From Pseudomonadota bacterium (GTDB taxonomy: Bacteria; Pseudomonadota; Gammaproteobacteria; UBA12402): a DNA stretch of 64,000 nucleotides. Location: assembly GCA_038043025.1 (NCBI GenBank), contig JBBTCW010000006.1:26710-90709 (forward strand). The letters are read 5' to 3'. Under the pieces are notes generated by a model. That model saw nothing but the letters and a program-made list of their open reading frames with translations. It was not told the origin of the DNA and searched no databases. Below are positions 9,024-49,531 of this stretch, piece by piece. The translations under genes were made by a program, and so were the position numbers. Each line of letters starts with the position of its first letter. Positions within the stretch are counted from its first letter, which is position 1.

Positions 9024-9036
9024 TGGGGGTGCGAAA

Positions 9037-18476: not shown

Positions 18477-18503
18477 ATTATGTGAAAAAGGGGCTTGTTT
18501 TAT

Positions 18504-23238: not shown

Positions 23239-24731
23239 GTCATTTTTGTTTTGCGCTGTTTATTTTCAAGTACTTTTTTATCTTGATAAAAGCTATCATC
23301 AGTATAATGCGTAGTAGATATTTCTTCGAAGATGGCGCCGTTGTTGGATTTAAAGTTATGATCTACGCCACGCTCAACGGTGACCATTTCGCCCGTGCTA
23401 ACTTCTTTGCTCGCGCCATCCAGCTCGACCGCCATATCGCCATAAAGCAGATGAAATGTTTCTTCTTTCTTTTTATGATGATGTACCGGGTGTTTTTGTC
23501 CGGGTAATAAAATAATTAATTTTTTACAGTATTCTCGGTTAATACAATTGATAATGGCGGCGCCATATTCTTCATAGCGATCAATGCCGTAATGGTGCGA
23601 GAGCTCAAGCTCCAGTTGGTTGGGCAAGGCTATTTTGCTGGCCGCCAATATTTTTGTAATTTTTTTGATGATGTTTACAACGGTTGTTCGTGAGTTTTTA
23701 ATAATGAGATCATTGTAAGTGATGGCGGTTTTTTCTGTTACATCATTTTGTAGCGTGTAATCAGTGTATTTTGAAAACTCATTAGAAACAAGTTGCGCGT
23801 CGATATTGGGTATGGCATAAAAGATATTATCGGTTGTTAATTTATCACCTTTTTTTAAGTTGGATTTTGCAAAAACCCCGCGCTTTAAACCGCGTAAATC
23901 ATTGCCTTCTTTTTCCGAGATGGCTCGCCGTTTGTGAGTGACGCCGCATATGTCATAAGTTTCTTTTGCTGCTTGTAGCCATTGCTCGATTTGTTCAGGG
24001 GTTGAAGAATAAGCGTTTAATTCGTAGCGATCTGTGGCTAAACCGACATGGCGTTCAAAAAGTCCAGCGCCTTTTGCAATGGCGATTTTAATGGGGTCGA
24101 AATTATTGGGTGCTTCATGGGTCGAAAAACCAATGGAAATTTTTGAATAACGGTTTCTGAAAAAATCAATTTGGTTGAGCTCTAAATCTTGATTGGGTGT
24201 TGGATAAGCGCCAATGCAATGCATGAGCGCAAATTCTTTTTTTCGATGTTCAAAGAATGAGACAACTTTGTCAATATCTTCAAGTGAGGCGCCGGCGGTT
24301 GATGCAATAATAGGTTTGCTGGTTTGCGCAATTTTTTCTAATAAGGGCCAGTCGGTAAAAGAGCAACTGGCGATTTTAATGATGTCAAAGTCATGTGCTT
24401 CAATTAAGTCCACAGAGTTCTCATCAAACGGCGTGCAAATGGCGGTAAATCCATTATTAACGATTTCATCTTTGAGCGATTTTAAGTCATCGCGGTCTAA
24501 ACGTGTTTCAGAAAATCGTTTAATATATTTAATATCTTGTCGATGTTTGTAGTCAGGATGAATGAAAGTATCGAGGTCGCGGTATTGTAGTTTAAAGCCA
24601 AATTTGAAGGGAAATTTATGTTTAATTTTTCCCAGTTGTTGAATAATGGCTTTTCCATGCGCAACATCACCCATATGGTTGTTGGCCATTTCGAAGATAA
24701 AGAGTTGGTGAAAAATATCTGACGATGACAT
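23202..24731 (-). CDS. NeuB-family PEP-condensing synthase fused to SAF and C-terminal cupin domains
   Basis: N-terminus IFEMANNHMGDVAHGKAIIQQL (NeuB-type); SAF-like FAKSNLKKGDKLTTDNIFYAIP; C-terminus HPVHHHKKKEETFHLLYGDMAVELDG (cupin). 3' end convergently overlaps rfbH by 37 nt. Confidence 0.55.
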   Translation of the reverse strand: MSSSDIFHQLFIFEMANNHMGDVAHGKAIIQQLGKIKHKFPFKFGFKLQYRDLDTFIHPDYKHRQDIKYIKRFSETRLDRDDLKSLKDEIVNNGFTAICTPFDENSVDLIEAHDFDIIKIASCSFTDWPLLEKIAQTSKPIIASTAGASLEDIDKVVSFFEHRKKEFALMHCIGAYPTPNQDLELNQIDFFRNRYSKISIGFSTHEAPNNFDPIKIAIAKGAGLFERHVGLATDRYELNAYSSTPEQIEQWLQAAKETYDICGVTHKRRAISEKEGNDLRGLKRGVFAKSNLKKGDKLTTDNIFYAIPNIDAQLVSNEFSKYTDYTLQNDVTEKTAITYNDLIIKNSRTTVVNIIKKITKILAASKIALPNQLELELSHHYGIDRYEEYGAAIINCINREYCKKLIILLPGQKHPVHHHKKKEETFHLLYGDMAVELDGASKEVSTGEMVTVERGVDHNFKSNNGAIFEEISTTHYTDDSFYQDKKVLENKQRKTKMTYWMDWINCEIV

Positions 24732-24910: not shown

Positions 24911-26047
24911 ATGGCGATTACAGAATGCAGGGTTTGTGGTTATGGTTTTTTTGATGAGCCATTGCTGCAATATGCTAATATGCCAAAATCTGCTCAATTT
25001 TTACCCGTTGCGGCTTCTTTGAAAAATGATGAGGGTGTCGATCTAAATGTCTATCAATGCGCAGCTTGTGGTTTAGTGCAGTTGAATAGTCATCCAGTGC
25101 ATTATTACAGGGATGTCATACGTGCAGCCGCCTTTTCAGAGGAAATGAGAAAATTTCGATTGGATCAATTCGCTGGGTTTATCAAGCAGCACAATCTTGT
25201 TCAAAAAAAAGTCATCGAGATTGGGTGTGGGCGAGGGGAGTATTTATCACTTATTCGTGATTGTCATGTGGATGCTTATGGAATAGAAAATTCTGCAGCG
25301 TCAGTGGCATATTGCATTAAACATAAACTTAATGTTTTTCAAGACTTTATTGAGAGCAATGAACAGAAGGTTGCGCATGCTCCATTTGATGCGTTTTTGA
25401 TGTTAAGTTTTTTAGAACATCTGCCTCAGCCCAATGCGATACTTCAAGGAATATGCCGAAATTTGGCTGATGATGCCGTCGGGATTGTGGAAGTGCCAAA
25501 TTTTGATATGATTATTAAAAAGAAGCTTTTTTCTGAATTTATCAGTGATCACCTGTTTTATTTTACGCGAGATACGTTAATTGCGATCCTACAGTTAAAT
25601 GGATTTGACGTATTGGAATGTAAAAATGTGTGGTATGATTACATCCTTTCCGCAGTTGTCAAAAAACGAACACGTATGAGTTTGTCAGTGTTTTATAAAT
25701 CGCAAGAACAGTTGCAACAACGGGTTAGTGATTATCTGGATGGCTTTGGCGATCAAAAGGTAGCCATCTGGGGGGCGGGGCATCAGGCATTAGCGATGAT
25801 GTCTTTGATGCGCTTAGAAGATAGAATCAAATATGTGGTTGATTCTGCGCCGTTTAAGCAGGGCAAATATACCCCTGCCACGCATATCCCTATTGTGTCG
25901 CCTGAAATGTTGAATGTCGATCCTGTTGATGCGGTGATTGTAATGGCAGCCAGTTATTCAAATGAAGTTGTGCAAACATTGCGAAAAAATTTCAATAAAA
26001 ACTTAAATGTTGTTGTGTTAAAAGAGCATGATTTAGTAACAGCGTGA
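24911..26047 (+). CDS. NDP-hexose C-methyltransferase (TylC3-like; Zn-ribbon + SAM MTase + C-methyltransferase C-terminal domain)
   Basis: N-terminal Cys pairs CRVCG...CAACGLVQL typical of the TylC3 family zinc-binding domain. SAM motif VIEIGCGRGEY. C-terminal Rossmann-like IWGAGHQALAMMS. Confidence 0.65.
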   Translation: MAITECRVCGYGFFDEPLLQYANMPKSAQFLPVAASLKNDEGVDLNVYQCAACGLVQLNSHPVHYYRDVIRAAAFSEEMRKFRLDQFAGFIKQHNLVQKKVIEIGCGRGEYLSLIRDCHVDAYGIENSAASVAYCIKHKLNVFQDFIESNEQKVAHAPFDAFLMLSFLEHLPQPNAILQGICRNLADDAVGIVEVPNFDMIIKKKLFSEFISDHLFYFTRDTLIAILQLNGFDVLECKNVWYDYILSAVVKKRTRMSLSVFYKSQEQLQQRVSDYLDGFGDQKVAIWGAGHQALAMMSLMRLEDRIKYVVDSAPFKQGKYTPATHIPIVSPEMLNVDPVDAVIVMAASYSNEVVQTLRKNFNKNLNVVVLKEHDLVTA

Positions 26048-26103: not shown

Positions 26104-27216
26104 GTGAGGCATAAAGTGTTAGATCAAAATTTACGTCAGAGTGAAATAGAAAAGCGTAATCAATTACAACATAACAAGCCGCGTGTTTATGAGAAAATTA
26201 CACGGTTTAAAGATAAAGTTGAACGAGGAGAAAGTATTGCTATTATTCAATTTCAATATAATTATCAATGCAATTTTCGTTGTGAGCATTGTTCAATAAA
26301 AGGGTTTCAAGGCAAACAGGACAAGAGAAAATTTACGATAGAAGATGTAAAAAAGCTTTCATATGAGGCGGATGAAATGGGTTTGGCGCATTTGGTGATT
26401 ACGGGGGGGGAGCCGTTAATTTTTAAAGATTATGATGCATTGATAGCGGCTATTGATCCCAGCAAATTTTATATTAGTTCTGATACAAATGGTTGGTTTT
26501 TAGATGCTGAAAGAGCGCGTCATCTTAAAGAGATTGGCGTGGATAAAATTCAATTGAGTCTTGATAGCCTTGATGCGGATTCTCACGATGCGTTTAGAGG
26601 AGCGCCCGGATCACATGCGCGCGCGTTACGTGCGATTGATGCAGCGCAGAATGCTGGCTTAAATATTATTGTACAAACGGTTGTCACAAAGACCCGATTG
26701 CATACGGATGAATTTATTCGTTTTTTAGAGTTTTTAAATGCTAAAAATGTTGGCGTATTTGTGACTTATGCCAAACCTGTAGGCGCGTGGGAAGGGCATT
26801 TTGAAGAATTGGTTGATCTTGATGACATGGCTTATATGCGAGAGCTCGAGAAAAAACATAATGTATTTACGCATTTAACGCCGTCTTATGGATTGGATTT
26901 AGGTTGCTTAGCAGTTAAGCGAATGATTTCTGTTACACAATACGGTGATGTTTTGCCTTGCCCATATATTCATACATCGATAGGGAACGTATTTCAAGAG
27001 TCATTACAAAAGATTATTAATCGAGGGTTAAGTATTAAATATTTTGGCGAATATGTGGAGACTTGTTTGATCGCAGAAGATAGAAAATTTATCCATGATT
27101 ATGTGGTGAAAAAAATATATGGCAAGCCATTACCTGTTCCATATGATGAGGTGTTTGATGCGGAGAGCGATTATATAAAAGATAAGGTTGATGCGGCTTG
27201 GGTAGAGGTAGAGTAG
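26104..27216 (+). CDS. Radical SAM protein with SPASM/twitch-like C-terminal domain
   Basis: CNFRCEHC (CX3CX2C) and GGEPL motifs. C-terminal GDVLPCPY is SPASM-like. Apparent GTG start. Confidence 0.65.
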   Translation: MRHKVLDQNLRQSEIEKRNQLQHNKPRVYEKITRFKDKVERGESIAIIQFQYNYQCNFRCEHCSIKGFQGKQDKRKFTIEDVKKLSYEADEMGLAHLVITGGEPLIFKDYDALIAAIDPSKFYISSDTNGWFLDAERARHLKEIGVDKIQLSLDSLDADSHDAFRGAPGSHARALRAIDAAQNAGLNIIVQTVVTKTRLHTDEFIRFLEFLNAKNVGVFVTYAKPVGAWEGHFEELVDLDDMAYMRELEKKHNVFTHLTPSYGLDLGCLAVKRMISVTQYGDVLPCPYIHTSIGNVFQESLQKIINRGLSIKYFGEYVETCLIAEDRKFIHDYVVKKIYGKPLPVPYDEVFDAESDYIKDKVDAAWVEVE

Positions 27217-29514: not shown

Positions 29515-31227
29515 TTGAATATACTGTTTATTTTTCCGCTTAATGAGCCATATAATAGCATAGTAAATGCGACTCAAACGCCGTGGAAATCCAAATTAAG
29601 CGCATATAAAAACATAAAAAAACTAGATTGCGCCTATCCAACCGGATTATTGTCTATTGCGGCGTATGTTAAAAAAAGTATTCCGGATGTTAATATAAAG
29701 ATTTTAGACATTAATGCGGTGATGGTTCGTGTCGCACAGAGAAAAAATGAGTGCTCGGAGAGCTTTGACGAATATACACGTGAAGATTTGTTAAAAGAAG
29801 CTTTATCTAATCTTGATGGCTTTGCTCCAGATATTATCGGGATTTCTTTGTTGTTTTGTAGTAATTATCGGGATTTGGGCGCGCTGGCATTTTTTTTGCG
29901 AAAAGCATATCAAGAAAGTTTGATTGTTTGTGGTGGGCACCTAGCCTCGGCGAGCTATGATCGTATATATGAGGATGATTTTGAAATTGATGCAATTGTA
30001 TTTGGTGAGGGTGAGCGGCCGTTGCTTGAACTGACACAAGCCAGGCTAGAGGAGAAGCAAGTACAATATTTAGAGGAAAGCCCCTCATGGGTGACAAAAG
30101 AAAAAGCGCAGTCGAAATCGAAGTTTATTCCTGAGAATAAAGTGATTGTTGATTTGGATGAGATTCCTCCTTTTGATTTAAGTATGTTGATATTTTCTGA
30201 TGTCTATTTTAATTCGACAAGATATTTTTTTGTCATTGACTCTCAATCCAATCACAATGAAATGTTTATATTTTCAACACGCGGGTGTCCTTATAAATGT
30301 GTATTTTGTGCGTCTCAAAATGTACACGGCCATAAAGTAAGATCTTATAGTGTAGATAGGATAAAACAAGATATTTTGTATTATCATGAAAAATATAATA
30401 TCGATAGATTTATTTTTTATGATGACCATTTTTTAATTTATAAAAAAAGAGCTATCGAGATATTAAATTTCATTTCACAAAAACATCTTATTGCCGAAGT
30501 TCCTACGCCAGCTTTTTTTTCGATTAATAAAGAAACCGCTGCAGCCATGCGGCAAGCGGGTATAAAAGAAGTGAACATTACGATTGAAAGCGGCAATAGT
30601 GATACGTTAAAAAATATTATACATAAACCGGGGGATTTAAAGAGGGCAGAGGAGGCAGTCGATTGTCTTCATCGAGAAGGCATTGTGGTTGTTTCGAATA
30701 TTTTGATTGGGTTGCCGGGCGAAACAGCGCAATCGATTGATAAGGGATTGGCATATTTAATGACAACCGAGATCGATTGGTTTCAATGTTTTGTTGTTGC
30801 GCCGCTTCCCGGGAGTGAATTATATAAAATCTGCGAAGAAAATGATTATTTGGTTAGGAATTATGATTTATCCACAATGGATTACAAAAAATGTTTAATT
30901 AAAACTAAGGATTTTGATCCAACATATATTGAAAACAAAGCATATGAGATGAATTTAATCCTAAACTTTGTCAATAATTACAATATGCGACAAGGAAAAT
31001 ATGATTTGGCATTGCGACTTTTTGAAAGAGTGATTAATACTGTAATAGATACACATGCCTTTGCATATTATTATGCGGCCATATGTTGTAAACAATTAAG
31101 TTTAGACGATAAATATCTTGTGTATAAAAGGAAATATGAGGAAATGATTGAAAGATTTATATTTTGGAACGCTTATGCTGACAAGTTTAAATTAAAACAA
31201 TTAAGTTCTATTGATGTTTTGATGTGA
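29515..31227 (+). CDS. Cobalamin-binding (class B) radical SAM protein
   Basis: N-terminal B12-binding-like domain followed by STRGCPYKCVFCAS (CX3CX2C... wait: CPYKCVFC). 570 aa. Confidence 0.65.
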   Translation: MNILFIFPLNEPYNSIVNATQTPWKSKLSAYKNIKKLDCAYPTGLLSIAAYVKKSIPDVNIKILDINAVMVRVAQRKNECSESFDEYTREDLLKEALSNLDGFAPDIIGISLLFCSNYRDLGALAFFLRKAYQESLIVCGGHLASASYDRIYEDDFEIDAIVFGEGERPLLELTQARLEEKQVQYLEESPSWVTKEKAQSKSKFIPENKVIVDLDEIPPFDLSMLIFSDVYFNSTRYFFVIDSQSNHNEMFIFSTRGCPYKCVFCASQNVHGHKVRSYSVDRIKQDILYYHEKYNIDRFIFYDDHFLIYKKRAIEILNFISQKHLIAEVPTPAFFSINKETAAAMRQAGIKEVNITIESGNSDTLKNIIHKPGDLKRAEEAVDCLHREGIVVVSNILIGLPGETAQSIDKGLAYLMTTEIDWFQCFVVAPLPGSELYKICEENDYLVRNYDLSTMDYKKCLIKTKDFDPTYIENKAYEMNLILNFVNNYNMRQGKYDLALRLFERVINTVIDTHAFAYYYAAICCKQLSLDDKYLVYKRKYEEMIERFIFWNAYADKFKLKQLSSIDVLM

Positions 31228-32830: not shown

Positions 32831-33772
32831 ATGTCAAAAAAATTAATTAGCATTATGAGTAATTGTTATAACGAAGAAGAAAATGTTGATGAATTCTATC
32901 AGCAAATTAAAGAAATCATGATGTCCTATCAAGATAAATATGAGTATGATCATCTTTTTATGGATAATTCTTCAACGGATGGAACGGTAAAAAAAATTAA
33001 AGCTATTATTGAAAAAGATAAACATGTGCGACTCATCGTAAATACACGAAATTTTGGACAGATCCGTTCCCCTTATTATGGGATATTGCAAGTAAAGGGA
33101 GATGCTGTTGTGAGCTTGGCAACCGACTTTCAAGATCCTCCGTATTTGATTAGGGAATTTATAGCGAAGTGGGAAGAGGGATATAAAAATGTTATTGGGG
33201 TGAAACATAAAAGCAAAGAAAATAAAATAATGTTTTTTATTAGAAAGTTTTTCTATCGCTTGATAGCGAAAATATCCGAAGTAGATCTGGTTGAAAACTT
33301 TACTGGTTTTGGTCTTTATGACAAACAGTTTATTGATGTTTTACGCGGTCTTGATGATCCTTATCCTTATTTTCGTGGATTGATTGCTGAATTAGGGTTT
33401 AGTCGTGCTGAAATATCATATGCTCAGCCGAAACGAGAGAGAGGGACATCGACTAATAATTGGTATAGTTTATATGATCTTGCTATGCTGGGTTTTGTGA
33501 ATCATTCGAAGTTGCCTCTGCGTTTGTCGAGTTTTTTAGGATTTTTTGTATCATTTGTTTGTGTTGTTATTGCAATAGTTTATTTTATTTATAAGCTGCT
33601 TTTCTGGTCTTCTATTCAGATGGGTATTGCACCACTTATTATTGGTATGTTTTTCTTTGGTGGCGTGCAATTATTTTTTCTTGGTATTATTGGTGAATAT
33701 GTGGGGGCAATATTTACGCAGGTAAAAAATCGTCCGTTGGTTATTGAAAGGGAGCGGGTTAATTTTGATTAA
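32831..33772 (+). CDS. Polyprenyl-phosphate glycosyltransferase (GT2, GtrB/ArnC/DPM1-like) with C-terminal TM helices
   Basis: ISIMSNCYNEEENV...DNSSTDGT GT2 signature. Two C-terminal hydrophobic helices, typical of GtrB-like enzymes. Confidence 0.65.
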   Translation: MSKKLISIMSNCYNEEENVDEFYQQIKEIMMSYQDKYEYDHLFMDNSSTDGTVKKIKAIIEKDKHVRLIVNTRNFGQIRSPYYGILQVKGDAVVSLATDFQDPPYLIREFIAKWEEGYKNVIGVKHKSKENKIMFFIRKFFYRLIAKISEVDLVENFTGFGLYDKQFIDVLRGLDDPYPYFRGLIAELGFSRAEISYAQPKRERGTSTNNWYSLYDLAMLGFVNHSKLPLRLSSFLGFFVSFVCVVIAIVYFIYKLLFWSSIQMGIAPLIIGMFFFGGVQLFFLGIIGEYVGAIFTQVKNRPLVIERERVNFD

Positions 33773-34250
33773 TACAATAAAAAAACATATTTTTAACGAA
33801 CGATTTTCTAAATTCTTTTTAATCGGCATTTGGAACGCGGCATTTGGTGTCGGTGTTTTTTCCTTATTATATTATTGGTTTCATCAATATGTTAATTATA
33901 TGATTTTAGTGATCATCACTAATATTTTAGCCATTACTAATGCATATATCTGTTATAAGTTAGTTGTTTTTAAGACGAAGGGCAACTATGTTAAGGAGTA
34001 TTTAAGGTTTTATATCGTGTACGGTTTTGCATTTGCTGTGAGTTTATTGCTTTTCCCGCTTTTTATGGAAGTGGTCTTTCCTTTTTTGGCAGCGCATATG
34101 CCAAATTATTATGGTATCTTTAATTACAAGGCTTATTTGTCGCAACTTGTCATTACTAGTATCACCATGTTTGTCAGTTATTTTGGGCATCTTAAGGTTT
34201 CTTTTCGTGAGGAAGCCTCTTCAGAGGTGTTGCCCGATGGAGAAGGTTGA
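33744..34250 (+). CDS. GtrA-family small membrane protein
   Basis: 168 aa with about 4 TM helices (FLIGIWNAAFGVGVF...). Positioned after a GtrB-like gene. Confidence 0.55.
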   Translation: MKGSGLILINTIKKHIFNERFSKFFLIGIWNAAFGVGVFSLLYYWFHQYVNYMILVIITNILAITNAYICYKLVVFKTKGNYVKEYLRFYIVYGFAFAVSLLLFPLFMEVVFPFLAAHMPNYYGIFNYKAYLSQLVITSITMFVSYFGHLKVSFREEASSEVLPDGEG

Positions 34251-36055
34251 AAGTTATGATTAAACTATCGGATTATGTTGCAAAATTTATTGTAGATAAA
34301 AAAATAAAAAATTTGTTTTTATTGCCGGGTGGCGGATGTATGCATTTAGTTGATTCATTTGGTTGTCGTTCGGAGATTAAAAAGATTTGTTGTCTTCACG
34401 AGCAGGCGGCAGTCATCGCGGCAGATGCATGTAGTCAATACACCAATGATTTTGGCGTTGCGCTGGTGACAACAGGCCCGGGCGCGACAAATGCGATTAC
34501 AGGTGTTGCAGGGGCTTGGATCGATTCGGTTCCGATGATGGTGATTTCAGGCCAAGTGAAACGGCAAGACATGATGGGTCAGAGCAGATTGCGACAAAAG
34601 GGCGTTCAAGAAGTCGATATTATTACGATGGTGAAATCAATTACTAAATATGCTGTGACCGTGATGGATCCACAGCGCATTCGATATCATTTAGAAAAAG
34701 CCTATTGTTTAGCGCGCACGGGTTGTTCGGGTCCTGTTTGGATTGATATTCCATTGGATGTGCAGGGTGCAATGATCGAGGAGGATGCGTTAGAGCAGTT
34801 TATTCCTGCGCAAATCACTCGGCCGGATTTATCAGATCAAATAGATCATGTAGTCGATTTATTAAATCAGGCTAAACGACCGGTTCTTTTGGTTGGGAAT
34901 GGTGTGCGTTTGTCACATGGCATGTCAGAATTTTATGAATTAATTGACGCATTGAACATTCCTGTGTTAACCACTTGGAAATCAATCGATTTTTTATCGG
35001 AAGACCACCCGTTATTTTTTGGTCGCCCCGGGTCGATTGGACAACGTTATGCGAATTTGATTCAGCAAAATAGTGATTTATTCATAACCATTGGTGCGCG
35101 TCTTGATTTGGCGCAGATTGGTTATAATTATGGATGGGTCGCGCGTGAAGCGAGAAAAGTAGTGGTCGATGTTGATCAAGCGCAAATTGATAAAATGAGT
35201 GACATGCATATTGATGTGAGTGTTTGCGCGGACGCAAAGAATTTTATTAATCATCTGCTGGTAAAACAAAATGTAATCAATCGGTCGGATAGAAAAAAAT
35301 GGTTTGATCAATGCAAGATATGGAAGCAAAAATATCCCGTCATATTGTCAGCTTATTATGATGAGAAAAATTATGTTAATACCTATGTGTTGGTTGATAT
35401 CTTATCTGAACTATTGACAGAAGATGATGTGTTGGTGCCCGGAAGTTCAGGGAGTTGTAGTGAAATATTATCACAAGCATTTAAGGTGAAAAAAGGACAG
35501 CGAATTTTTAATAATCCGGGTTTAGGATCAATGGGATATGGATTGCCGGCGAGCATGGGTGCATGTGTTGCGAGCGGTAAGCGGACGATTACCGTGATTG
35601 GAGATGGTGGTTTGCAGCATAATATTCAAGAGTTGGAGACGATCCATCGATTGCAATTGCCGTTGAAAATATTTATTTTAAATAATAATGGTTATGCGTC
35701 GATTCGAAATATGCAGCGCAATTATTTTGATAAAAATTATATGTGCTGTGATCCATCGTCTGGCTTAACGGTGCCAAATACTTGTGATGTTGCATCGGCG
35801 TATAAAATCGCAACAACCCGAATTTATAATCATGAAAACATGAAAGAAAAAATAATGGCGGTTTTGCAAAGCAAGGGACCGATGATATGCGATGTGATGG
35901 TGAATCCTGATTTAATTACAGCGCCGCGTTTGTCTTCTGAAGTTAATAAAGATGGAAAAATCACATCGAAGCCGCTCGAAGATTTATGGCCATTTTTGGA
36001 TCGAGATGAATTTTTAGCGAATATGTTGGTGCCGGTGCTTGAGGCAAGTGAATGA
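34247..36055 (+). CDS. Thiamine-diphosphate-dependent enzyme of the acetolactate synthase/YerE-like family
   Basis: 602 aa. ThDP motif GDGGLQHNIQELETI...NNNGY. N-terminal TPP_enzyme_N-like TTGPGATNAITG. Confidence 0.7.
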   Translation: MKVMIKLSDYVAKFIVDKKIKNLFLLPGGGCMHLVDSFGCRSEIKKICCLHEQAAVIAADACSQYTNDFGVALVTTGPGATNAITGVAGAWIDSVPMMVISGQVKRQDMMGQSRLRQKGVQEVDIITMVKSITKYAVTVMDPQRIRYHLEKAYCLARTGCSGPVWIDIPLDVQGAMIEEDALEQFIPAQITRPDLSDQIDHVVDLLNQAKRPVLLVGNGVRLSHGMSEFYELIDALNIPVLTTWKSIDFLSEDHPLFFGRPGSIGQRYANLIQQNSDLFITIGARLDLAQIGYNYGWVAREARKVVVDVDQAQIDKMSDMHIDVSVCADAKNFINHLLVKQNVINRSDRKKWFDQCKIWKQKYPVILSAYYDEKNYVNTYVLVDILSELLTEDDVLVPGSSGSCSEILSQAFKVKKGQRIFNNPGLGSMGYGLPASMGACVASGKRTITVIGDGGLQHNIQELETIHRLQLPLKIFILNNNGYASIRNMQRNYFDKNYMCCDPSSGLTVPNTCDVASAYKIATTRIYNHENMKEKIMAVLQSKGPMICDVMVNPDLITAPRLSSEVNKDGKITSKPLEDLWPFLDRDEFLANMLVPVLEASE

Positions 36056-36927
36056 AGATATTGATTACAGGGGGCGCTGGTTTTATTGCAAAAAGTTTGT
36101 TTGATGAGCTTAATCAATTGTACGATGTAATTCTTTGTTCTCGAACAGATCTTGATTTGCTGGAGCCACAAGCCGTTTTTGAATATATTAAACGCTTTCA
36201 GTTTGATGTTGTTATTCATGCGGCGACTTATGATGCCGCGCCAACCTGTTCGATAAAAAATCCAAGCAAAGTATTAGAAAATAATTTGAAAATGTTTTTT
36301 AATATTGTGCGTTGTCAGAATTATTTTGGGAGATTAATTTATTTTGGCTCAGGAGCTGAATATGATCGTAATTATTGGGTGCCTAAAATGAAGGAAAGTT
36401 ATTTCGATCGACATATCCCGACTGATCAATATGGGTTTTCAAAATATATTATGACTAAATATATGCAGCACAGTAAAAATATTTATAATCTCAGGTTGTT
36501 TGGTGTGTTTGGGAAATACGATGATTGGCGCTATCGTTTTATTCCCAATGCTTGTTGCAGAGCTTTATTGGGTCGGCCTATTGTGATCCGTCAAAATAAG
36601 ATGTTTGATTTTATGTATATTGATGATTTAGTGGAAATAGTAAAATGGATTATATTGGCTCAGCCAATAGAAAATATATATAATGTTTGTTCAGGTCGGG
36701 CGCTTGAACTAAAGGCAATAGCCAAAACAATTGTAGAGGTGTCTGGGAAGCAGTCAGAAATCATTTGTTTGGAGTCGCAATTAGCCAGCGAATATAGTGG
36801 AGATAACGCTTTGCTTTTAAGTGAGCTAAAGGATTTTAGATTTTATGGGATAGAACAGGCCATTCAGAATTTGTATGATTGGTATGCAAGTAATGTATCT
36901 TTAATTTGTGAGGATCAATTGTGTTAA
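36052..36927 (+). CDS. NAD-dependent epimerase/dehydratase/reductase (SDR family)
   Basis: ITGGAGFIAKSL Rossmann motif. 291 aa. YxxxK-like YIMTK. Confidence 0.55.
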   Translation: MKILITGGAGFIAKSLFDELNQLYDVILCSRTDLDLLEPQAVFEYIKRFQFDVVIHAATYDAAPTCSIKNPSKVLENNLKMFFNIVRCQNYFGRLIYFGSGAEYDRNYWVPKMKESYFDRHIPTDQYGFSKYIMTKYMQHSKNIYNLRLFGVFGKYDDWRYRFIPNACCRALLGRPIVIRQNKMFDFMYIDDLVEIVKWIILAQPIENIYNVCSGRALELKAIAKTIVEVSGKQSEIICLESQLASEYSGDNALLLSELKDFRFYGIEQAIQNLYDWYASNVSLICEDQLC

Positions 36928-37439
36928 ATAATATTACGATACATGATGCCATTGCGTTTTTGGAACATCAAGTTGTGAATTCGTCCAAAGGGTTGCCGCA
37001 GGAATTATTTTTCTTTGTGACTCGAATGACGCCTATGGTAAATGTTGATTTGTTGGTGAGAGATGAAACAGGGCGAATTTTATTGGCGTGGCGCGATGAC
37101 CAATTTGCTGGAGCAGGTTGGCATGTTCCCGGAGGCATTATTCGGTTTAAAGAAACGATGATGACGCGTTTGTTAAAGATAGCTGACACTGAAATTGGTG
37201 CTGTTGTTGAACTAGATGCAGCGCCCATTGCCATTAATGAAGTTATTTGTGAACATGACACGCGAGGACATTTTATTTCTGTTTTATATCGAGGATATCT
37301 ATCGAGTAAATTTGAACCTAAAAATATGGGTTTGAAAGATACGGATCCTGGTTATCTGGCGTGGCATTCAGTATGTCCTAATAATCTTGTGACGGTGCAT
37401 GAGATGTATAGAATTTATTTGAACAATGAAAAATGTTAG
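36921..37439 (+). CDS. Nudix-hydrolase-like protein (degenerate Nudix box)
   Basis: GGIIRFKETMMTRLLKIADTEIG approximates the Gx5Ex7REUxEExGU Nudix box. Size about 170 aa, similar to GDP-sugar hydrolases. Confidence 0.4.
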   Translation: MLNNITIHDAIAFLEHQVVNSSKGLPQELFFFVTRMTPMVNVDLLVRDETGRILLAWRDDQFAGAGWHVPGGIIRFKETMMTRLLKIADTEIGAVVELDAAPIAINEVICEHDTRGHFISVLYRGYLSSKFEPKNMGLKDTDPGYLAWHSVCPNNLVTVHEMYRIYLNNEKC

Positions 37440-38733
37440 GGTTGTTATAATGCTTAAAAATGCATTGTCTTTTTTCATACCACATAAGCGATTCAATATT
37501 TTTTCGGGGACGAATACTTGGAAAGAGTGGAGGATGTTTTTTTGTTCTTATTTTACATTCGGGTCTTATCAGGATGAGTCTGTAATTGATGATTATGAAA
37601 AAGCGTTTGCAAAAGCATCGGATACTATTCATGCGATTAGTTTTGGCGCGGGTCGCATGGGGTTATATGCTATCTTAGAGGCGTTGGGGTTGCAGATGGG
37701 CGATGAAATTATTCTGCCAGCATTTACTTGCGTGGTCGTGCCCAATGCCATTATCTATCGAGGACTTAAGCCCATTTATGTTGATATTGATCCCGTTACG
37801 TTTAATATAGATGTTTCAAAAATAGAAAAGGCCATTACGTCTCGTACACGTGCGCTATATATTCAACATACGTTTGGTATTATTTGTGATATTGAGAAGG
37901 CGCGAGAAATTGCTGATCGATATAAATTATATCTTGTCGAGGATGCGTGCCATGCGTTGGGCGCTACTTATAAAGGAAAGAAAGCAGGCTCCTTGGCCGA
38001 TGTTGCCTATTTTAGTACGGATCATTCGAAAGTGATCAGTACGGTTTTGGGCGGTATGGTGACAACAAACAATGATGAGTGGGCAACAAAAATACGTGCT
38101 ATTCAGCAATCCTCGCCTTTTTTAACGCGAAAAATGGTTCACAGAGTTATATTAGCTTTTTTAACCGAGTATATGTTGCTTTCTCCTTATGGTGTTTGGT
38201 TGGGACGAAAGTTTTTCGCCGCGCTAGTAAAATTCAAAATGATTTTCTTTTATCATGATGAATTGAAAACAGAGAGGCCGACGGATTATCCTTATCCTTG
38301 TCGGTTGTCGTCGATTCAGGCAAAACTGGGCTTGTCTCAATTGGCTGATTTGGATCGCAATTTAGACTATCGTCGCAAAATAGCATTGTGGTTAGAATCA
38401 AGAATTAAGTGGTATGATGATTTACCTCAAGAATTTTTGCTACAACAAACGTGGATTCGTTATTCTTTTTTAGTGGCGGATAGAAAAAAATTTGAGGCGC
38501 TTTTTTGTCATCATTTTGATTTAGGTATTTGGTTTACGAGTATTTTGCATGGGCGAGTTGATGATTTGGATCAACTGGGTTATATTCAGGGATCATGCCC
38601 GGTGGCAGAATTTGTCGCGCAACATATTGTGAATTTTCCGACACATTTGCGTATTCCTTTAAAATTTTTACAAGATAATTGGTTAGAGTATGAGAAGGTG
38701 GTTTTAACTATGTTGGATAGGACGGTAGTATGA
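37426..38733 (+). CDS. DegT/DnrJ/EryC1-family PLP/PMP-dependent enzyme
   Basis: EDACHALGATYKGK, YFSTDHSKVIS (Lys) and HTFGIICD. Start uncertain; N-terminus atypical. Confidence 0.55.
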   Translation: MKNVRVVIMLKNALSFFIPHKRFNIFSGTNTWKEWRMFFCSYFTFGSYQDESVIDDYEKAFAKASDTIHAISFGAGRMGLYAILEALGLQMGDEIILPAFTCVVVPNAIIYRGLKPIYVDIDPVTFNIDVSKIEKAITSRTRALYIQHTFGIICDIEKAREIADRYKLYLVEDACHALGATYKGKKAGSLADVAYFSTDHSKVISTVLGGMVTTNNDEWATKIRAIQQSSPFLTRKMVHRVILAFLTEYMLLSPYGVWLGRKFFAALVKFKMIFFYHDELKTERPTDYPYPCRLSSIQAKLGLSQLADLDRNLDYRRKIALWLESRIKWYDDLPQEFLLQQTWIRYSFLVADRKKFEALFCHHFDLGIWFTSILHGRVDDLDQLGYIQGSCPVAEFVAQHIVNFPTHLRIPLKFLQDNWLEYEKVVLTMLDRTVV

Positions 38734-39878
38734 TTCGTTTGTCGAAATCTGTTGTGGGAGACCAGGAAGCGATCGCGCTTTCAAAGGTTGTAGCTCATGG
38801 TTATTTAGGGATGGGAGTAGAGGTTCAATTATTTGAGCAAAAATTGCAAGACTATCTGGATTGTTCGGACAGGAAAGTGGTTTGCGTTAATTCCGGGACT
38901 GCGGCATTACATTTAGCGTTACAAGCGTTGGGGCTGGGGGTGGGGGACGAAGTGTTAGTGCCCGCGATGACTTATATCGCTTCTTTTCAAGCGGTTTCTG
39001 CGACAGGTGCAACACCGGTTGCTTGTGATGTACGTTTAGAGAATGGGTTGTTGGATTTGAAAGATGCTCAGAAACGGTTAAGTCCAAAAACCAAAGCACT
39101 CATGTTTGTTCATTATGCGAGTTATTGTGGCGATCTGCAATCTGTTTATGATTTTGCAAAGCAATATAAATTAAGAGTAGTTGAAGATGCAGCACATGCG
39201 TTTGGCTCAATCTATCAAGGCAAAAAAATTGGTAGCTTTGGCGATGTGGTTTGTTTTAGTTTTGATGGGATTAAAAACATTACCTGCGGGGAGGGGGGTG
39301 CCATTGTAAGCGCGGATAGTGCAGTTATTAATAAAGTATTAGATGCACGATTGTTGGGTGTGCATAGAGAGAAGATTGAAAAACTTTCTTCAATGCAATG
39401 CAGTGGTGATTTTGATGTGATGGAGCAGGGATTTCGATATCACATGAGCAACTTAATGGCAGCGATTGGTATCGTGCAATTGAACCGGTTTGAAAAAGAA
39501 TTTAAACCGGCGAGAAGACAGCTGATAAGCTATTATTATGAGCGATTGAAAAATATCCCGGGGATTCAGTTATTGCAAATGGATTTAGATGATATTGTGC
39601 CACATATTATGCCGATGAGGGTTTTGAATGGTCAGCGTGATCGGTTAGGGATATATTTAAAGCAGCATGCAGTCGAGGTTGGAGTTCATTATAAGGCAGC
39701 TCATTTATTGTCCAAATACGGCCATGGTAGACCCCGGTTACCGGCTGCAGAACAATTGGCTGTCGAATTATTGACCTTGCCATTACATCCAGAGCTGAGC
39801 AAGCGGGATATTGATTATATTGTCGATTTAGTGCAGATTTTGTTGTGTGAAAAATCATGTGTTATGAGTGAAAATTGA
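38730..39878 (+). CDS. DegT/DnrJ/EryC1-family sugar aminotransferase
   Basis: SFDGIKNITCGEGGAIV (PLP lysine), EDAAHAFGS and NSGTAALHLAL. Confidence 0.7.
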   Translation: MIRLSKSVVGDQEAIALSKVVAHGYLGMGVEVQLFEQKLQDYLDCSDRKVVCVNSGTAALHLALQALGLGVGDEVLVPAMTYIASFQAVSATGATPVACDVRLENGLLDLKDAQKRLSPKTKALMFVHYASYCGDLQSVYDFAKQYKLRVVEDAAHAFGSIYQGKKIGSFGDVVCFSFDGIKNITCGEGGAIVSADSAVINKVLDARLLGVHREKIEKLSSMQCSGDFDVMEQGFRYHMSNLMAAIGIVQLNRFEKEFKPARRQLISYYYERLKNIPGIQLLQMDLDDIVPHIMPMRVLNGQRDRLGIYLKQHAVEVGVHYKAAHLLSKYGHGRPRLPAAEQLAVELLTLPLHPELSKRDIDYIVDLVQILLCEKSCVMSEN

Positions 39879-41807: not shown

Positions 41808-42722
41808 ATGTTGATACCTGTCATATTGGCCGGTGGTATAGGCAAGCGTTTATGGCCTTTATCCACGCCGAAACGACCCAAGCAATTTCTGCCGCTGTTG
41901 AGTGACAAAAGCTTATTACAAGAAACGATGGCTCGTATTGCGCATTATCCAGAGATGTCTTTGCCAATGGTGATAGGCAGTTTGTCACATCGCGCTTTGT
42001 TGAACGAGCAATTAATAGGTGCTCAAGCGACTATAATTTTGGAACCATTTGGACGCAATACGGCGCCAGCGATTGCGATTGCTGCTTTAAGAGCGATGGA
42101 AAGTGGGCAAGATCCTATTTTATTTGTATTGCCTTCTGATCATGTGATTCAGAATCCAGATATATTTTATAAAGCGATAGCGATTGCTTGTGCGCACGCA
42201 GAAAAAAATAAATTAGTAACGTTTGGCATTGTGCCTCACGCACCAGAAATAGGTTACGGATATATTGAAGCGGGGGAGCGTTGTGATGATGCCTATGTCA
42301 TTAAACGATTTGTAGAAAAACCCCCGAAACAATTAGCCGAACAATATTTGGCGCAGGGCGGATATTATTGGAACAGTGGGATGTTTGTCTTTCGGGCGTC
42401 ATCGATTTTACAGGCGATTGAAACATATGCGCCAAACATTTACGCGGCTTGTCAGGAGACGTTAAAAAATAGTCGAAAGGATAAGAGGTATATTTATCTC
42501 AATGAAATACAATTTGCGCAATGCCCAAAAGAATCCATCGATTGTGCGGTCATGGAGAAAACAAAGGATGCAGTGGTGGTGCCGTTAGATGCCGGTTGGT
42601 CGGATGTGGGTTCGTGGCATGTGTTATGGTCGTTGATGCGTAAAAATCAACATGGCTACATGAAGCTTGCTACTCTATTTTTGAGAAATATCATGAGTCG
42701 ATTAAAAAAGGATCCTCAATGA
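41808..42722 (+). CDS. Mannose-1-phosphate guanylyltransferase-like nucleotidyltransferase (no C-terminal cupin/PMI domain)
   Basis: N-terminus MLIPVILAGGIGKRLWPLS is classic for ManC/GMP-type enzymes. 304 aa. Confidence 0.65.
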   Translation: MLIPVILAGGIGKRLWPLSTPKRPKQFLPLLSDKSLLQETMARIAHYPEMSLPMVIGSLSHRALLNEQLIGAQATIILEPFGRNTAPAIAIAALRAMESGQDPILFVLPSDHVIQNPDIFYKAIAIACAHAEKNKLVTFGIVPHAPEIGYGYIEAGERCDDAYVIKRFVEKPPKQLAEQYLAQGGYYWNSGMFVFRASSILQAIETYAPNIYAACQETLKNSRKDKRYIYLNEIQFAQCPKESIDCAVMEKTKDAVVVPLDAGWSDVGSWHVLWSLMRKNQHGYMKLATLFLRNIMSRLKKDPQ

Positions 42723-43504
42723 AAACGGTTATTTTATGTGGAGGGCAAGGCACGAGAATTCGCGGAGTTGTGGAGAATATTCCTAAGCCAATGATCCCGG
42801 TGGGTGCTTTCCCCATTCTTTGGCATATCATGAAATACTATGCGTGCTGGCGGCATAAAGAATTTGTGCTGTGTTTAGGATATCAGGCTGATGTAATTAA
42901 GGATTTTTTTCGTAATTACAAAGCACATATGTGTGATTATACTGTTTTTTTAGGGGATTCGAAGCGAGTTGAATATCATGGGAAGCATGATGAAGCGGAT
43001 TGGCAGGTGACGTTGGCAGAAACGGGGTTGAACGCAATGACGGGTGTTCGTATTAAGCGGATTAAAAAATATATCGCGGAGGACGAACATTTTATGCTGA
43101 CCTATGGGGATGGGGTGGGTGATGTTGATTTAGATAAGTTACTCGCGTTTCATTTATCTCACGGAAAAATTTTAACCATGACCGGCGTGCATCCCCCGGG
43201 TCGTTTTGGTGAGTTAATGAGTGACGCCAAGGGATTGGTCACTGAATTTAACGAAAAACCGCAATCCACGGGTGGTTGTATCAATGGCGGTTTCTTTGTC
43301 TGTCGTCGTGAAATATTTGATTATTTAAGTGACGATGAATCTTTAGTGTTTGAGCAAGAACCGATAAAAAAATTAGTCGCTGATCGGCAGATGATGTTGT
43401 ATGAACATGGTGGTTTTTGGCAGCCGATGGATACCTATCGCGAATATTCTTTACTAAATGGATTGTATGATGCGGGTAAAGCGCCTTGGGTCATTTGGAA
43501 ATGA
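42719..43504 (+). CDS. rfbF: Glucose-1-phosphate cytidylyltransferase
   Basis: MKTVILCGGQGTRIRGVVENIPKPMIPVG is diagnostic of RfbF/DdhA. 261 aa. Confidence 0.8.
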   Translation: MKTVILCGGQGTRIRGVVENIPKPMIPVGAFPILWHIMKYYACWRHKEFVLCLGYQADVIKDFFRNYKAHMCDYTVFLGDSKRVEYHGKHDEADWQVTLAETGLNAMTGVRIKRIKKYIAEDEHFMLTYGDGVGDVDLDKLLAFHLSHGKILTMTGVHPPGRFGELMSDAKGLVTEFNEKPQSTGGCINGGFFVCRREIFDYLSDDESLVFEQEPIKKLVADRQMMLYEHGGFWQPMDTYREYSLLNGLYDAGKAPWVIWK

Positions 43505-44492: not shown

Positions 44493-46253
44493 ATGATAGA
44501 TGATATTTCAGTATCCATTGTTATTCCGACCTATAATCAAGCGCAATATTTGAAAATATGCCTTCAGTCGGTTCTTGAGCAAACGCGAACAGATTGGGAA
44601 GTGATTATCATTAATAATTTTTCGAATGATAATACCGTTGAGATTGTGCAGGCGATGCGGGATGAGCGCTTTACCCTGATTAATTTTGATAATAAAGGGA
44701 TTATCGGTGCGGCTAGAAATGAAGGAGTGCGTCACGCGCGCGCACCGTTAATTGCTTTTTTGGATTCGGATGATGGGTGGGAAAAAAATAAATTAGAGGT
44801 TATTTTAAATTATTTTAACGAACACACTGATGTTGATTTGGTTTGTCACGATGAATGGTTATATGTCGGGAATAAAAAAACAAAGATTTTAAAATACGGC
44901 GCACACTCCGATTATAGGAACTTGTTATTTAAAGGCAATGCTTTATCGACGTCGGCGGTGACGCTTAAAAAAAATAGTTTTTGGCGTGTGAATGGTTTTT
45001 CGGAAGAGTCGTGTTTGGCGGGCGTAGAAGACTATGATTTGTGGCTTCGCTTAGCGCGGAAGGGTTGTAAGATGGCTTTTGTGCGGGATGTTTTAGGATA
45101 TTATAGAACGCACGATGATAGCTTTTCGGCGAAAATTGAAAAACATTGTGCGCATCTCACCTATTTGTTTGATCAGCATTTTAGAGATTGGCAACCGAAA
45201 AACTTATATTATCGTTTTTTGATGAGAGGCTGTTACGCCAATGCCAATAGGATATGCGGAAAAATGCTCATGAAGGGAAAAGGGCAGCGACATAATGCTA
45301 GAAAATATTTGCGCCGTGCGCTTGGATATAATCCGTTGTCATGGAAAGCGTGGGTTCATATGTGCATGTGTTTAGGAGGGTTAATAGGGGAAGCGCTGAT
45401 GCGATTTCGTCATTTACTCGCCTATTCATTGCCTTTTTTGTTGGGGCTTAAGCGGTGCCAGTCAATGGTTAATCCGTTGATGAATAACTCTTTAAGCATT
45501 TTGCTTTATCACGATATTCCAAATCATTTGTTTGATTCTTTCAGGGCGCAAATGCAATTTTTGCAAAAACATTATCAATTTATTACACCGAACGAATTTG
45601 AGCAAATGGCACGAGGAGACAAAATGATCGTCGGGCATCAACTGCTATTAAGCTTTGATGATGGCTTTAAGTCAAATTTTTATGTGGCGAAAGAAATTTT
45701 AACCCCGCTTAACATTAAAGCGCTATTTTTTATATCGCCGGGCTTTGTGGATTGTACTGATCGTGCAACGCAAATAGCTTTTATGCAAAATAGACTACGG
45801 CTTCAGGCGATGGATATTTCGAACAATATGGCACCGATGAACTGGGAGGATTTACACTGGCTTATTCGATCGGGTCATACGATTGGTTCGCATACCCTGA
45901 CGCACGCGTGTTTGTCGAAAATGATATCGCCGGAAGAGTTATTTTCTGAGGTGGTGCAAAGCAAAAAAATACTGGAAGCGCGACTGCAGCAATCGATTAC
46001 GCATTTTGCGTATCCACGGGGGGATATTGATAGCATTGATTCTGCCGCATTATCTTTGGCATTAAAGCATTATCGATATGTTTATTCCGGTGTTCGAGGG
46101 AGCTGTTGTGTGCGATCTCGCGTGTTTTATCGCGAATGTATGGATCTTGGTTCGGGGGTCCATTATGCGCGTTTTTTAATAGAGGGCGGCTTGAGGTTTC
46201 ATTATAAGCGTGCGCGGAAAAAGTTAGATTCGATGGCGGAAAAATCATGTTGA
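44493..46253 (+). CDS. Bifunctional GT2 glycosyltransferase / polysaccharide deacetylase (NodB-homology) protein
   Basis: N-terminus VSIVIPTYNQAQYL...LDSDD (GT2). C-terminal half LLLSFDDGFKSNF...HTLTH (NodB deacetylase motifs). Confidence 0.6.
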   Translation: MIDDISVSIVIPTYNQAQYLKICLQSVLEQTRTDWEVIIINNFSNDNTVEIVQAMRDERFTLINFDNKGIIGAARNEGVRHARAPLIAFLDSDDGWEKNKLEVILNYFNEHTDVDLVCHDEWLYVGNKKTKILKYGAHSDYRNLLFKGNALSTSAVTLKKNSFWRVNGFSEESCLAGVEDYDLWLRLARKGCKMAFVRDVLGYYRTHDDSFSAKIEKHCAHLTYLFDQHFRDWQPKNLYYRFLMRGCYANANRICGKMLMKGKGQRHNARKYLRRALGYNPLSWKAWVHMCMCLGGLIGEALMRFRHLLAYSLPFLLGLKRCQSMVNPLMNNSLSILLYHDIPNHLFDSFRAQMQFLQKHYQFITPNEFEQMARGDKMIVGHQLLLSFDDGFKSNFYVAKEILTPLNIKALFFISPGFVDCTDRATQIAFMQNRLRLQAMDISNNMAPMNWEDLHWLIRSGHTIGSHTLTHACLSKMISPEELFSEVVQSKKILEARLQQSITHFAYPRGDIDSIDSAALSLALKHYRYVYSGVRGSCCVRSRVFYRECMDLGSGVHYARFLIEGGLRFHYKRARKKLDSMAEKSC

Positions 46254-49452: not shown

Positions 49453-49531
49453 GCGAAAGTCGCTATTAATTGCCTGATTAAAGGTGGCTTTGCCTGGTGA
49501 ATTATCCCAAATAGATAGAGGCAGAAAGATA

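Follow-up and report, generated by a model that had tools for sequence, protein, structure and literature searches.

In the yersiniose A system of Yersinia pseudotuberculosis, a two-carbon acetyl branch from pyruvate is placed on CDP-4-keto-3,6-dideoxy-D-glucose, the product of DdhA, DdhB and DdhC, by the thiamine diphosphate (ThDP)-dependent flavoprotein YerE, and YerF, encoded directly downstream, reduces it to a 1-hydroxyethyl branch. For sugars with longer acyl branches, a "unifying scheme" has been published that covers erwiniose (ErwE, ErwF, ErwI and ErwJ), caryophyllose (MMAR_2332) and gastriose (MyGE); in the erwiniose architecture, an aldolase makes 4-hydroxy-2-oxopentanoate as the donor (PMC9306805). 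The YerE-like branching enzymes, and the scheme of an alpha-keto-acid maker, a ThDP enzyme and a reductase acting on a CDP-ketosugar, are thus already known. JanthE of Janthinobacterium sp. HH01 is a further YerE-like enzyme, the crystals of which (8RPH, 8RPI, 8RPJ) contain FAD. Here we describe a gene pair for a YerE-like ThDP enzyme and a short-chain dehydrogenase/reductase (SDR) within a glycan island of a gammaproteobacterium of the UBA12402 lineage. The window, that is, the whole stretch of DNA that was analysed, comprises 64,000 nucleotides (positions 26,710 to 90,709 of contig JBBTCW010000006.1, assembly GCA_038043025.1).

The ThDP enzyme belongs to the YerE-like branch of the acetolactate synthase/acetohydroxyacid synthase (ALS/AHAS) superfamily and is not a true AHAS. 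Together with the SDR, it most likely builds a carbon branch on a CDP-activated deoxysugar, as part of a sugar-branching cassette that recurs in many genomes. The likeliest product would be a long-branched 3,6-dideoxyhexose, with an ulosonic acid made by a NeuB-family synthase as the donor.

The carboligase and its family

The two genes under study are the following.

34256-36055, plus strand: YerE/JanthE-like ThDP carboligase of 599 amino acids (aa), assigned from Pfam TPP_N/M/C, PDB matches, the neighbour-joining (NJ) clade and an AlphaFold2 (AF2) model
36052-36927, plus strand: extended SDR of the NAD(P)H-dependent reductase/epimerase type, 291 aa, a candidate YerF-like keto-reductase (Pfam Epimerase, RmlD_sub_bind)

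The longest open reading frame (ORF) of the carboligase, 34247-36055 on the plus strand, begins with TTG and has 602 codons; it matches the Pfam domains TPP_enzyme_N (E 6e-31), TPP_enzyme_M (1e-32) and TPP_enzyme_C (2e-34). The true start is almost certainly the ATG at 34256 and not the TTG at 34247, because the 599-aa protein is present on 11 public contigs (exact look-up), homologues begin with MIKLSDYV, and the Shine-Dalgarno-like sequence GGAGAAGG lies about 10 nt upstream of this ATG. The exact look-up of the 602-aa protein in public assemblies gave no match. Proteins identical to those of the window were found in Hainich groundwater metagenomes and in a metagenome-assembled genome (MAG) labelled "Pseudomonadota bacterium".

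The best PDB sequence match of the carboligase is JanthE (8RPH; 402 bits, 35% identity), followed by PpYerE (5AHK; 288 bits, 32%) and the plant AHAS (at most 251 bits; 29.5% identity to the Arabidopsis enzyme, AtAHAS). The AF2 model (pLDDT 83, pTM 0.85) also matches JanthE best, with a template-modelling score of 0.92 to 8rph against 0.82-0.83 to AHAS. An NJ tree was computed from 13 relatives of the window protein, two paralogues, JanthE, PpYerE, Arabidopsis AHAS and the E. coli enzymes IlvB, IlvI and Gcl; its characterised YerE-like members are JanthE and PpYerE, while YpYerE, ErwE and MMAR_2332 were left out. The clade that unites the window protein with JanthE and PpYerE, and thus with YerE of Y. 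pseudotuberculosis in so far as PpYerE serves as its structural proxy, excludes E. coli IlvB, E. coli IlvI and AtAHAS in 100 of 100 bootstraps. With 54-72% identity across phyla, the family of the window protein is a large and tightly conserved sister clade of JanthE.

In the alignment, the catalytic glutamate is conserved (LHEQ) and the ThDP-binding motif GDG-X(24-27)-NN is intact (GDGGLQHNIQELETIHRLQLPLKIFILNNNGY), whereas JanthE has CDG in place of GDG. A 6-residue insertion before the FQE motif is found only in the window protein and YerE-like sequences, including JanthE. The window protein and JanthE also have in common a C-terminal PLEDLxP tail (SKPLEDLWPFLDR), which PpYerE lacks.

The top NCBIfam names of the protein and its public annotations both read acetolactate synthase large subunit, which would suit a glycan island that by chance harbours a genuine acetolactate/acetohydroxyacid synthase or a sulfoacetaldehyde acetyltransferase. 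However, the TIGR00118 score of 372.4 bits is below the cut-off of 538.35, and the scores against the other NCBIfam AHAS equivalogs are far below every curated cut-off. The three-domain fold, the ThDP, Mg and probably FAD sites and the catalytic glutamate are common to the window protein and the AHAS large subunits (IlvB, IlvI, IlvG and the plant enzymes). What sets them apart are two residues of the Arabidopsis enzyme, R377 (of RFDDR) and W574, which we take to bind the acceptor keto acid: RFDDR aligns with RLDLA in the window protein, R377 is replaced by Ala and W574 by Met. The AHAS large subunits also have a regulatory subunit, encoded next to them in the comparison loci ilvIH and ilvBN of E. 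coli. No ACT-domain small subunit adjoins the window gene, the neighbours of which encode GtrA and the SDR, and none was detected among the scanned ORFs of the window. One related contig (L097) carries the same cassette together with a separate, genuine AHAS large-plus-small pair. The window protein is not an AHAS, because its scores fall below the cut-offs, the acceptor residues are lost, no small subunit is adjacent and it falls outside the AHAS clade. Its gene context, a glycan island with an arrangement conserved across 83 related loci, likewise sets it apart from AHAS, and the identification as AHAS is effectively refuted.

In these respects, an earlier note on this DNA is confirmed. It had described a ThDP flavoenzyme gene followed by an SDR gene and preceded by GtrB and GtrA genes, all of which exist as ORFs with the corresponding Pfam domains, and the alignment, the tree and the sub-cut-off AHAS scores agree with its view of the enzyme as YerE-like and not an acetolactate synthase. 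The contrary outcome that it had named, a grouping with AHAS together with an adjacent small subunit, is not what the bootstraps and the neighbouring genes show. As to the flavin, the middle domain contains the motifs GNG (G-x-G loop), GARLD (GxRxD) and VDVD (DxD), which are invariant in the family and correspond to segments that presumably bind FAD in AHAS, but the FAD-stabilising Y268 and P293 of JanthE are Ile and Ala in the window protein. The window enzyme may well contain FAD too.

Two related loci encode a second, PpYerE-like ThDP paralogue with 33-36% identity to the window protein (L013, 10594-12378; L030, 15778-17538 on the minus strand). In L030, the gene after the paralogue encodes a protein homologous to the window SDR (43% identity).

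The conserved cassette

A scan for relatives that used one genome per GTDB species returned at least 456 loci of the ThDP family, in Omnitrophota, Nitrospirota, Planctomycetota, Chloroflexota, Cyanobacteria, Bacillota, Bacteroidota, Desulfobacterota and some archaeal MAGs. Among the carriers that can be cultivated are Thermodesulfobacterium sp. TA1, Vallitalea maricola and Nostoc. For comparison, the window proteins were mapped onto 83 related loci and all ORFs were clustered; a locus is called complete if the ThDP gene is flanked by 8 kb or more on each side, which holds for 40 loci. The gene order conserved in the 83 loci is RfbF - RfbG - RfbH - (NeuB+cupin) - (HAD phosphatase) - ThDP - (SDR) - (NUDIX) - C-methyltransferase - (B12 radical SAM) - radical SAM/SPASM - (ArnC-like GT2 - GtrA), where NeuB+cupin denotes a NeuB-family synthase fused to an isomerase-like cupin domain, HAD a haloacid dehalogenase-type enzyme, SAM S-adenosylmethionine and GT2 a family 2 glycosyltransferase. 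The most frequent partner in the complete loci is NeuB+cupin (35 of 40), followed by RfbH (32), RfbG (31), RfbF (30), the HAD phosphatase (28), radical SAM/SPASM (25), the C-methyltransferase (21), NUDIX (20) and the window-type SDR (11).

Immediately before the ThDP gene stands the HAD phosphatase gene in 47 of the 83 loci and NeuB+cupin in 15; in 62 loci, NeuB+cupin precedes the ThDP gene either immediately or with one HAD gene in between. The HAD/NT5C-like phosphatase, flanked in the said 47 loci by NeuB+cupin and the ThDP gene, has about 194 aa and a DxDD motif (for example, 9415-9993 in L008 and 7095-7679 in L044). All cassette members except the HAD phosphatase are present in the window, in a rearranged order, and we regard the window as a dispersed but, the HAD gene excepted, complete copy of this widespread sugar-branching cassette. 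In the searchable literature, we found no description of a NeuB+isomerase-linked ThDP gene combined with a CDP-glucose cassette.

The genes of the window that would supply the acceptor and the donor are the following.

42719-43504, plus strand: glucose-1-phosphate cytidylyltransferase, RfbF/DdhA (TIGR02623, 305.4 bits, cut-off 300.25)
18495-19601, plus strand: CDP-glucose 4,6-dehydratase, RfbG/DdhB (TIGR02622, 465.6 bits, cut-off 278)
21910-23238, plus strand: CDP-6-deoxy-4-hexulose 3-dehydrase E1, RfbH/DdhC (NF011936, 722 bits, cut-off 423)
23202-24731, minus strand: NeuB-family synthase fused to a D-lyxose-isomerase-like cupin, 509 aa (Pfam NeuB, 3e-40; Cupin_2)

On the basis of their sequences, the first three are shown to be RfbF, RfbG and RfbH. 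RfbH is 56% identical to the product of the RfbH gene directly upstream of JanthE and, in the alignment, has the hallmarks of E1, namely a His in place of the Lys that binds pyridoxal phosphate (PLP; HHIT) and the iron-sulfur motif C..CxCx7C.

The NeuB part of the fusion protein scores 399 bits against 3G8R, an orphan, uncharacterised structure, and about 80 bits against sialic acid synthases. The cupin domain has an HxH..E..H metal motif, and its model (pLDDT 93) finds its best fold matches over the full length in the D-lyxose isomerases 2y0o and 7nzq; complexes of D-lyxose isomerase with mannose and with fructose are among the matches. The fusion gene converges on the RfbH gene, with 3' ends that overlap by 37 nt. 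KdsD-KdsA-KdsC, and KDN-9-phosphate synthase with its phosphatase, are analogues for a module that forms an ulosonic acid. By this analogy, the NeuB+cupin module would convert a ketose or released aldose and phosphoenolpyruvate (PEP) into a free 3-deoxy-2-ulosonic acid, a plausible donor for the ThDP enzyme because it is an alpha-keto acid.

Proposed acceptor, donor and reduction

The JanthE locus (L092, 6805-15782) has the order RfbF - RfbG - RfbH - JanthE - SDR, followed by an acetaldehyde dehydrogenase (DmpF-like) and a 4-hydroxy-2-oxovalerate aldolase (DmpG-like), and then by SDR - GT2. JanthE sits in an erwiniose-type cluster, which suggests 4-hydroxy-2-oxopentanoate and CDP-4-keto-3,6-dideoxyglucose as its natural substrates. 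RfbF, RfbG and RfbH precede the ThDP gene in the same order at JanthE, in Pseudomonas extremaustralis and in most of the 83 loci, and an SDR gene follows it at JanthE as in the cassette, although the SDR next to JanthE is of another subfamily. The two systems also differ in the donor slot, which is occupied by the DmpF/DmpG-like pair at JanthE and by NeuB+cupin, with or without HAD, in the window family; a search of the window for a DmpF/DmpG aldolase pair found none. The clusters of the erwiniose, caryophyllose and gastriose type likewise resemble the cassette in their CDP-ketosugar genes, alpha-keto-acid maker, YerE-like ThDP enzyme, NAD(P)H-dependent reductase and optional SAM methyltransferase. 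In Erw-type clusters, a class II pyruvate aldolase makes the keto acid, and ErwE rejects pyruvate. The candidate in the window is a PEP-dependent NeuB-family synthase with a fused sugar isomerase; its predicted products would be longer ulosonic acids, polyhydroxylated and with 8-9 carbons.

We propose the following pathway. RfbF, RfbG and RfbH (E1) would convert glucose-1-phosphate into CDP-4-keto-3,6-dideoxy-D-glucose, the acceptor, by a route that is likely the same as in yersiniose A biosynthesis. The ThDP enzyme would then decarboxylate an alpha-keto acid and add the resulting acyl carbanion to the C-4 ketone, thereby generating a tertiary alcohol with an acyl branch; this step is proposed because of the clade membership of the enzyme and its conserved gene context. 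The donor would be a 3-deoxy-2-ulosonic acid formed from PEP and a lyxo- or manno-configured aldose by the NeuB+isomerase fusion (23202-24731, minus strand), as this fusion fills the slot that the JanthE and ErwE clusters give to a pyruvate aldolase pair. Its conservation as a partner in the 83 loci suggests a branch longer than two carbons. The SDR would then reduce a keto group of the ThDP product; as with YerF, the simplest target is the carbonyl of the branch. Tailoring may follow, through the C-methyltransferase and the radical SAM enzymes and, as a feature of this window alone, through two aminotransferases. The ArnC/GtrB-like GT2 and GtrA would move the sugar to polyprenyl phosphate for transfer to a surface glycan.

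The donor is the less certain part of this pathway. A NeuB-derived ulosonic acid is a serious candidate for it, if somewhat short of a probable one, and pyruvate seems rather unlikely. In its most specific form, the proposal is that the isomerase/NeuB synthase, usually with the HAD phosphatase, makes an 8-9-carbon acid resembling KDN or KDO, which the ThDP enzyme grafts onto C-4 of the CDP-4-keto-3,6-dideoxyhexose, so that a new class of 13-14-carbon, C-methylated surface sugars would arise. We put this forward only tentatively.

Several observations weigh against the proposed pathway. The cassette is scattered in the window, with NeuB+cupin on the opposite strand and 9.5 kb from the ThDP gene, and no homologue of the HAD phosphatase occurs anywhere in the window. 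The CDP-sugar genes are not adjacent to the ThDP gene either but lie 11-16 kb upstream and 7 kb downstream of it. A search for E3 (DdhD/AscD, a reductase with Fer2, FAD and NAD domains), the expected electron donor for C-3 deoxygenation, found none in the window or in the 83 related loci, although RfbH has the iron-sulfur motif of E1; E3 is present in the P. extremaustralis locus (L093, 4025-5014). The CDP-deoxyhexose cluster of the earlier note therefore stands as far as RfbF, RfbG and RfbH are concerned, all three above their cut-offs, but not as a compact cluster around the ThDP gene nor with an E3. For JanthE, the physiological substrates are stated to be unknown (PMC12188165). Five of the 40 complete loci lack NeuB+cupin, among them L066 and L079, which show only RfbF, a 4,6-dehydratase-type SDR, RfbH, the ThDP enzyme and a GT2. 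The ThDP enzyme can therefore work without NeuB+cupin, perhaps with a common keto acid. When sampled in reverse, from cupin homologues, the cassette ThDP gene stood beside the cupin in only one of three loci, the other two having a stand-alone cupin and a NeuB/cupin pair disrupted by an insertion sequence, so the cupin is not exclusive to the cassette. The direct comparison was with JanthE and, as a structural proxy for YerE, with PpYerE. To our knowledge, there has been no sugar-substrate assay on any enzyme of the clade of the window protein.

Some of these features would suit a classical yersiniose-type step, in which pyruvate provides a two-carbon acetyl branch on CDP-4-keto-3,6-dideoxyglucose and the SDR acts like YerF to leave a 1-hydroxyethyl branch. 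They include the remote position of NeuB+cupin on the other strand, the missing HAD gene and the relatives wholly without NeuB+cupin (L066, L079). RfbF, RfbG and RfbH, also present in the window, would serve this pathway too; the order of the ThDP and SDR genes, with a stop/start overlap at 36052-36055, matches yerE-yerF, and JanthE also accepts pyruvate (PMC12188165). This was the claim of the earlier note, and we consider it unlikely. The identity to PpYerE is only 32%, and JanthE, the nearest characterised relative at 35%, prefers longer donors and belongs to an erwiniose-type cluster with an aldolase pair. The tightly linked partner of the ThDP gene, moreover, is NeuB+isomerase and not the SDR (35 against 11 of the 40 complete loci). 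Compared with the yersiniose A system, the window has a donor that is probably not pyruvate, no ddhD (E3) gene, and a cassette that adds a C-methyltransferase, a radical SAM enzyme, NUDIX and NeuB+cupin.

The close linkage of NeuB+cupin, HAD and ThDP genes, the tightest in the family, could also mean that, in a separate chain-extension pathway, the ThDP enzyme does no more than decarboxylate the ulosonic acid or join it to a small aldehyde, while the CDP-sugar genes serve another sugar. The cassette contains no conserved CMP-activating enzyme for an ulosonic acid in the 83 loci, so the acid must be consumed somehow. Yet RfbF-RfbG-RfbH stand ahead of the ThDP gene in the same order in the family, at JanthE and in the Pseudomonas locus, and the minimal loci L066 and L079 retain RfbF, RfbH and a 4,6-dehydratase-type SDR with the ThDP enzyme and GT2 while lacking NeuB. 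All characterised members of the YerE-like clade are, furthermore, ketone-accepting carboligases (PMC12247030). A chain extension is thus improbable.

The SDR has Pfam matches to Epimerase (6.5e-30) and RmlD_sub_bind (8e-13), a GGxGFI Rossmann motif and an intact S100/Y127/K131 triad, of which the Tyr and the Lys are each kept in 26 of 29 family members. Its gene keeps a fixed place beside the ThDP gene: of 28 homologous cases, 24 have the SDR start no more than 77 nt from the ThDP stop, anywhere between a 66-nt overlap and a 77-nt gap. By analogy, a YerF-like role is the simplest interpretation. The points that weigh against it are that the SDR has only 23% identity over 134 aa to the one beside JanthE and is not its orthologue, that window-type SDRs are missing from most loci, and that the enzyme could equally be a C-4 reductase or epimerase. 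The YerE-then-YerF arrangement of the earlier note thus holds for the gene order but not for orthology with the reductase beside JanthE, nor is it a general feature of the cassette.

On the latter alternative, the SDR would resemble Prt/Abe, RmlD or Fcl and reduce C-4 or epimerise a different intermediate. It could, for instance, make the 3,6-dideoxyhexose that the Gmm-like NUDIX hydrolase, the gene of which overlaps that of the SDR, then frees as a substrate for NeuB. The best family matches in NCBIfam are indeed generic (heptose epimerase, RmlD, GDP-fucose synthase), and the low identity to the JanthE-neighbour SDR and the patchy distribution agree with such a role. We nevertheless find it doubtful, as it conflicts with the positional coupling to the ThDP gene and with the distribution of SDR types. 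Of the related loci, 54 extend 8 kb or more past the ThDP gene; among these, the window type, the JanthE type and a third type of SDR occur in 18, 7 and 12 loci, respectively, and never together, in a count uncorrected for shared ancestry. This mutual exclusion suggests that the window SDR and the JanthE-neighbour SDR have an equivalent role, and it fits three interchangeable enzymes for one reductive step.

Two other assemblies (L001 and L003) have split versions of three genes, those for the SDR, a B12 radical SAM protein and a GT2. Pseudogenisation or phase variation of the SDR was considered and rejected: nearly all differences from the window (24256-46055) are homopolymer shortenings of 1-2 bases, a sequencing artefact, and the rest are a few substitutions. 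Elsewhere in the window, 25 kb from the ThDP gene, another SDR (61573-62541, plus strand) is 34% identical to the SDR directly after the JanthE-like enzyme of P. extremaustralis (L093, 11854-12897).

Other genes of the island and significance

The remaining members of the cassette and the genes next to the ThDP-SDR pair are the following.

24911-26047, plus strand: NDP-hexose C-methyltransferase, TylC3/TcaB9-like (Pfam Methyltransf_13/14/23; PDB mycarose 3-C-methyltransferase, 7e-22)
26104-27216, plus strand: radical SAM/SPASM enzyme, conserved cassette member (Pfam Radical_SAM, SPASM)
29515-31227, plus strand: B12-binding radical SAM enzyme, probable C-methyltransferase, occasional cassette member (Pfam B12-binding, Radical_SAM; 19 of 83 loci)
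32831-33772, plus strand: GT2 resembling polyprenyl-phosphate glycosyltransferases, ArnC/GtrB/PgfS-like (Pfam Glycos_transf_2)
33744-34250, plus strand: small membrane protein of the GtrA family (Pfam GtrA_DPMS_TM, 8e-11; three transmembrane (TM) helices)
36921-37439, plus strand: Gmm-like NUDIX hydrolase, candidate NDP-sugar hydrolase releasing free sugar (Pfam NUDIX)
37426-38733, plus strand: DegT-family PLP aminotransferase, ORF of 435 aa (427 aa as called elsewhere; Pfam DegT_DnrJ_EryC1, 5.6e-62)
38730-39878, plus strand: DegT-family PLP aminotransferase, 382 aa (Pfam DegT, 8e-90; NCBIfam PseC/ArnB-like, sub-cut-off)

From 32831 to 39878, the genes for GT2, GtrA, ThDP, SDR, NUDIX and the two DegT proteins abut or overlap by 4-10 nt, and for this reason they look co-transcribed, consistent with a single transcription unit. 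A scan for consensus promoters and terminators yielded counts equal to those in shuffled sequence and was uninformative. The GT2 has two C-terminal TM helices and matches the NCBIfam models PgfS (2.5e-54) and ArnC (2e-30), both under the cut-off; homologues occur in 23 of the 83 loci. The NUDIX protein, with homologues in 39 loci, matches the NCBIfam GDP-mannose mannosyl hydrolase (3e-11) and is 34% identical over 77 aa to E. coli Gmm, variant Nudix box included. The same window encodes a mannose-1-phosphate guanylyltransferase (41808-42722). The C-methyltransferase has homologues in 53 of the 83 loci and the radical SAM/SPASM enzyme in 46, with 55-74% identity in most of the latter. For the aminotransferases, a homologue of the second was found in two loci, and none of the first was detected in any of the 83.

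At the start of the window, a transketolase is split into an N-part of 171 aa and a C-part of 166 aa (36-1035, plus strand); a radical SAM enzyme, an RfaE-like kinase/cytidylyltransferase and an NTP-transferase come next (1099-4424). Split transketolases recur beside the ThDP cassette in four related loci (L011, L027, L041 and L067). The region may represent a second, transketolase-type sugar-branching system, predicted examples of which have so far all come from Streptomyces (PMC12247030). It is followed by a nonulosonic acid pathway of the legionaminic acid type (5634-14689). LegB (525 bits) and LegC (523 bits) of this pathway exceed their NCBIfam cut-offs, and the region further encodes a 2-epimerase, NeuB, a CBS-NTP transferase (PtmE-like), a GFO oxidoreductase, a PseF/LegF-like cytidylyltransferase and an SDR.

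Two membrane proteins with 11 TM helices and no Pfam match (20196-21884, plus strand; 58006-59811, minus strand) are candidate GT-C transferases, polymerases or flippases for a polyprenyl-linked sugar; the second adjoins a GT2-GtrA fusion (56921-58009). A protein of 692 aa (46247-48325, plus strand) combines a short DegT-like segment with a FemAB/GNAT-type C-terminus. The glycan island also contains a Schlafen AlbA_2/HATPase_c_4 protein (49484-50950, plus strand) and an archaeal-type ATPase_2 protein (60005-61432, plus strand).

YerE-like enzymes are among the few biocatalysts that give chiral tertiary alcohols from unactivated ketones, and the natural substrates are known for only a handful of them. 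If the donor of the window enzyme is pyruvate, it is an ordinary new member of the yersiniose-type systems. The conserved NeuB+isomerase partner, however, predicts a new class of donors. If this is true, the cassette would be the first case in which a sialic-acid-type synthase supplies the donor of a ThDP carboligase. It would then point to long-branched surface sugars as a family so far overlooked in many uncultivated lineages and would provide concrete substrates to test.

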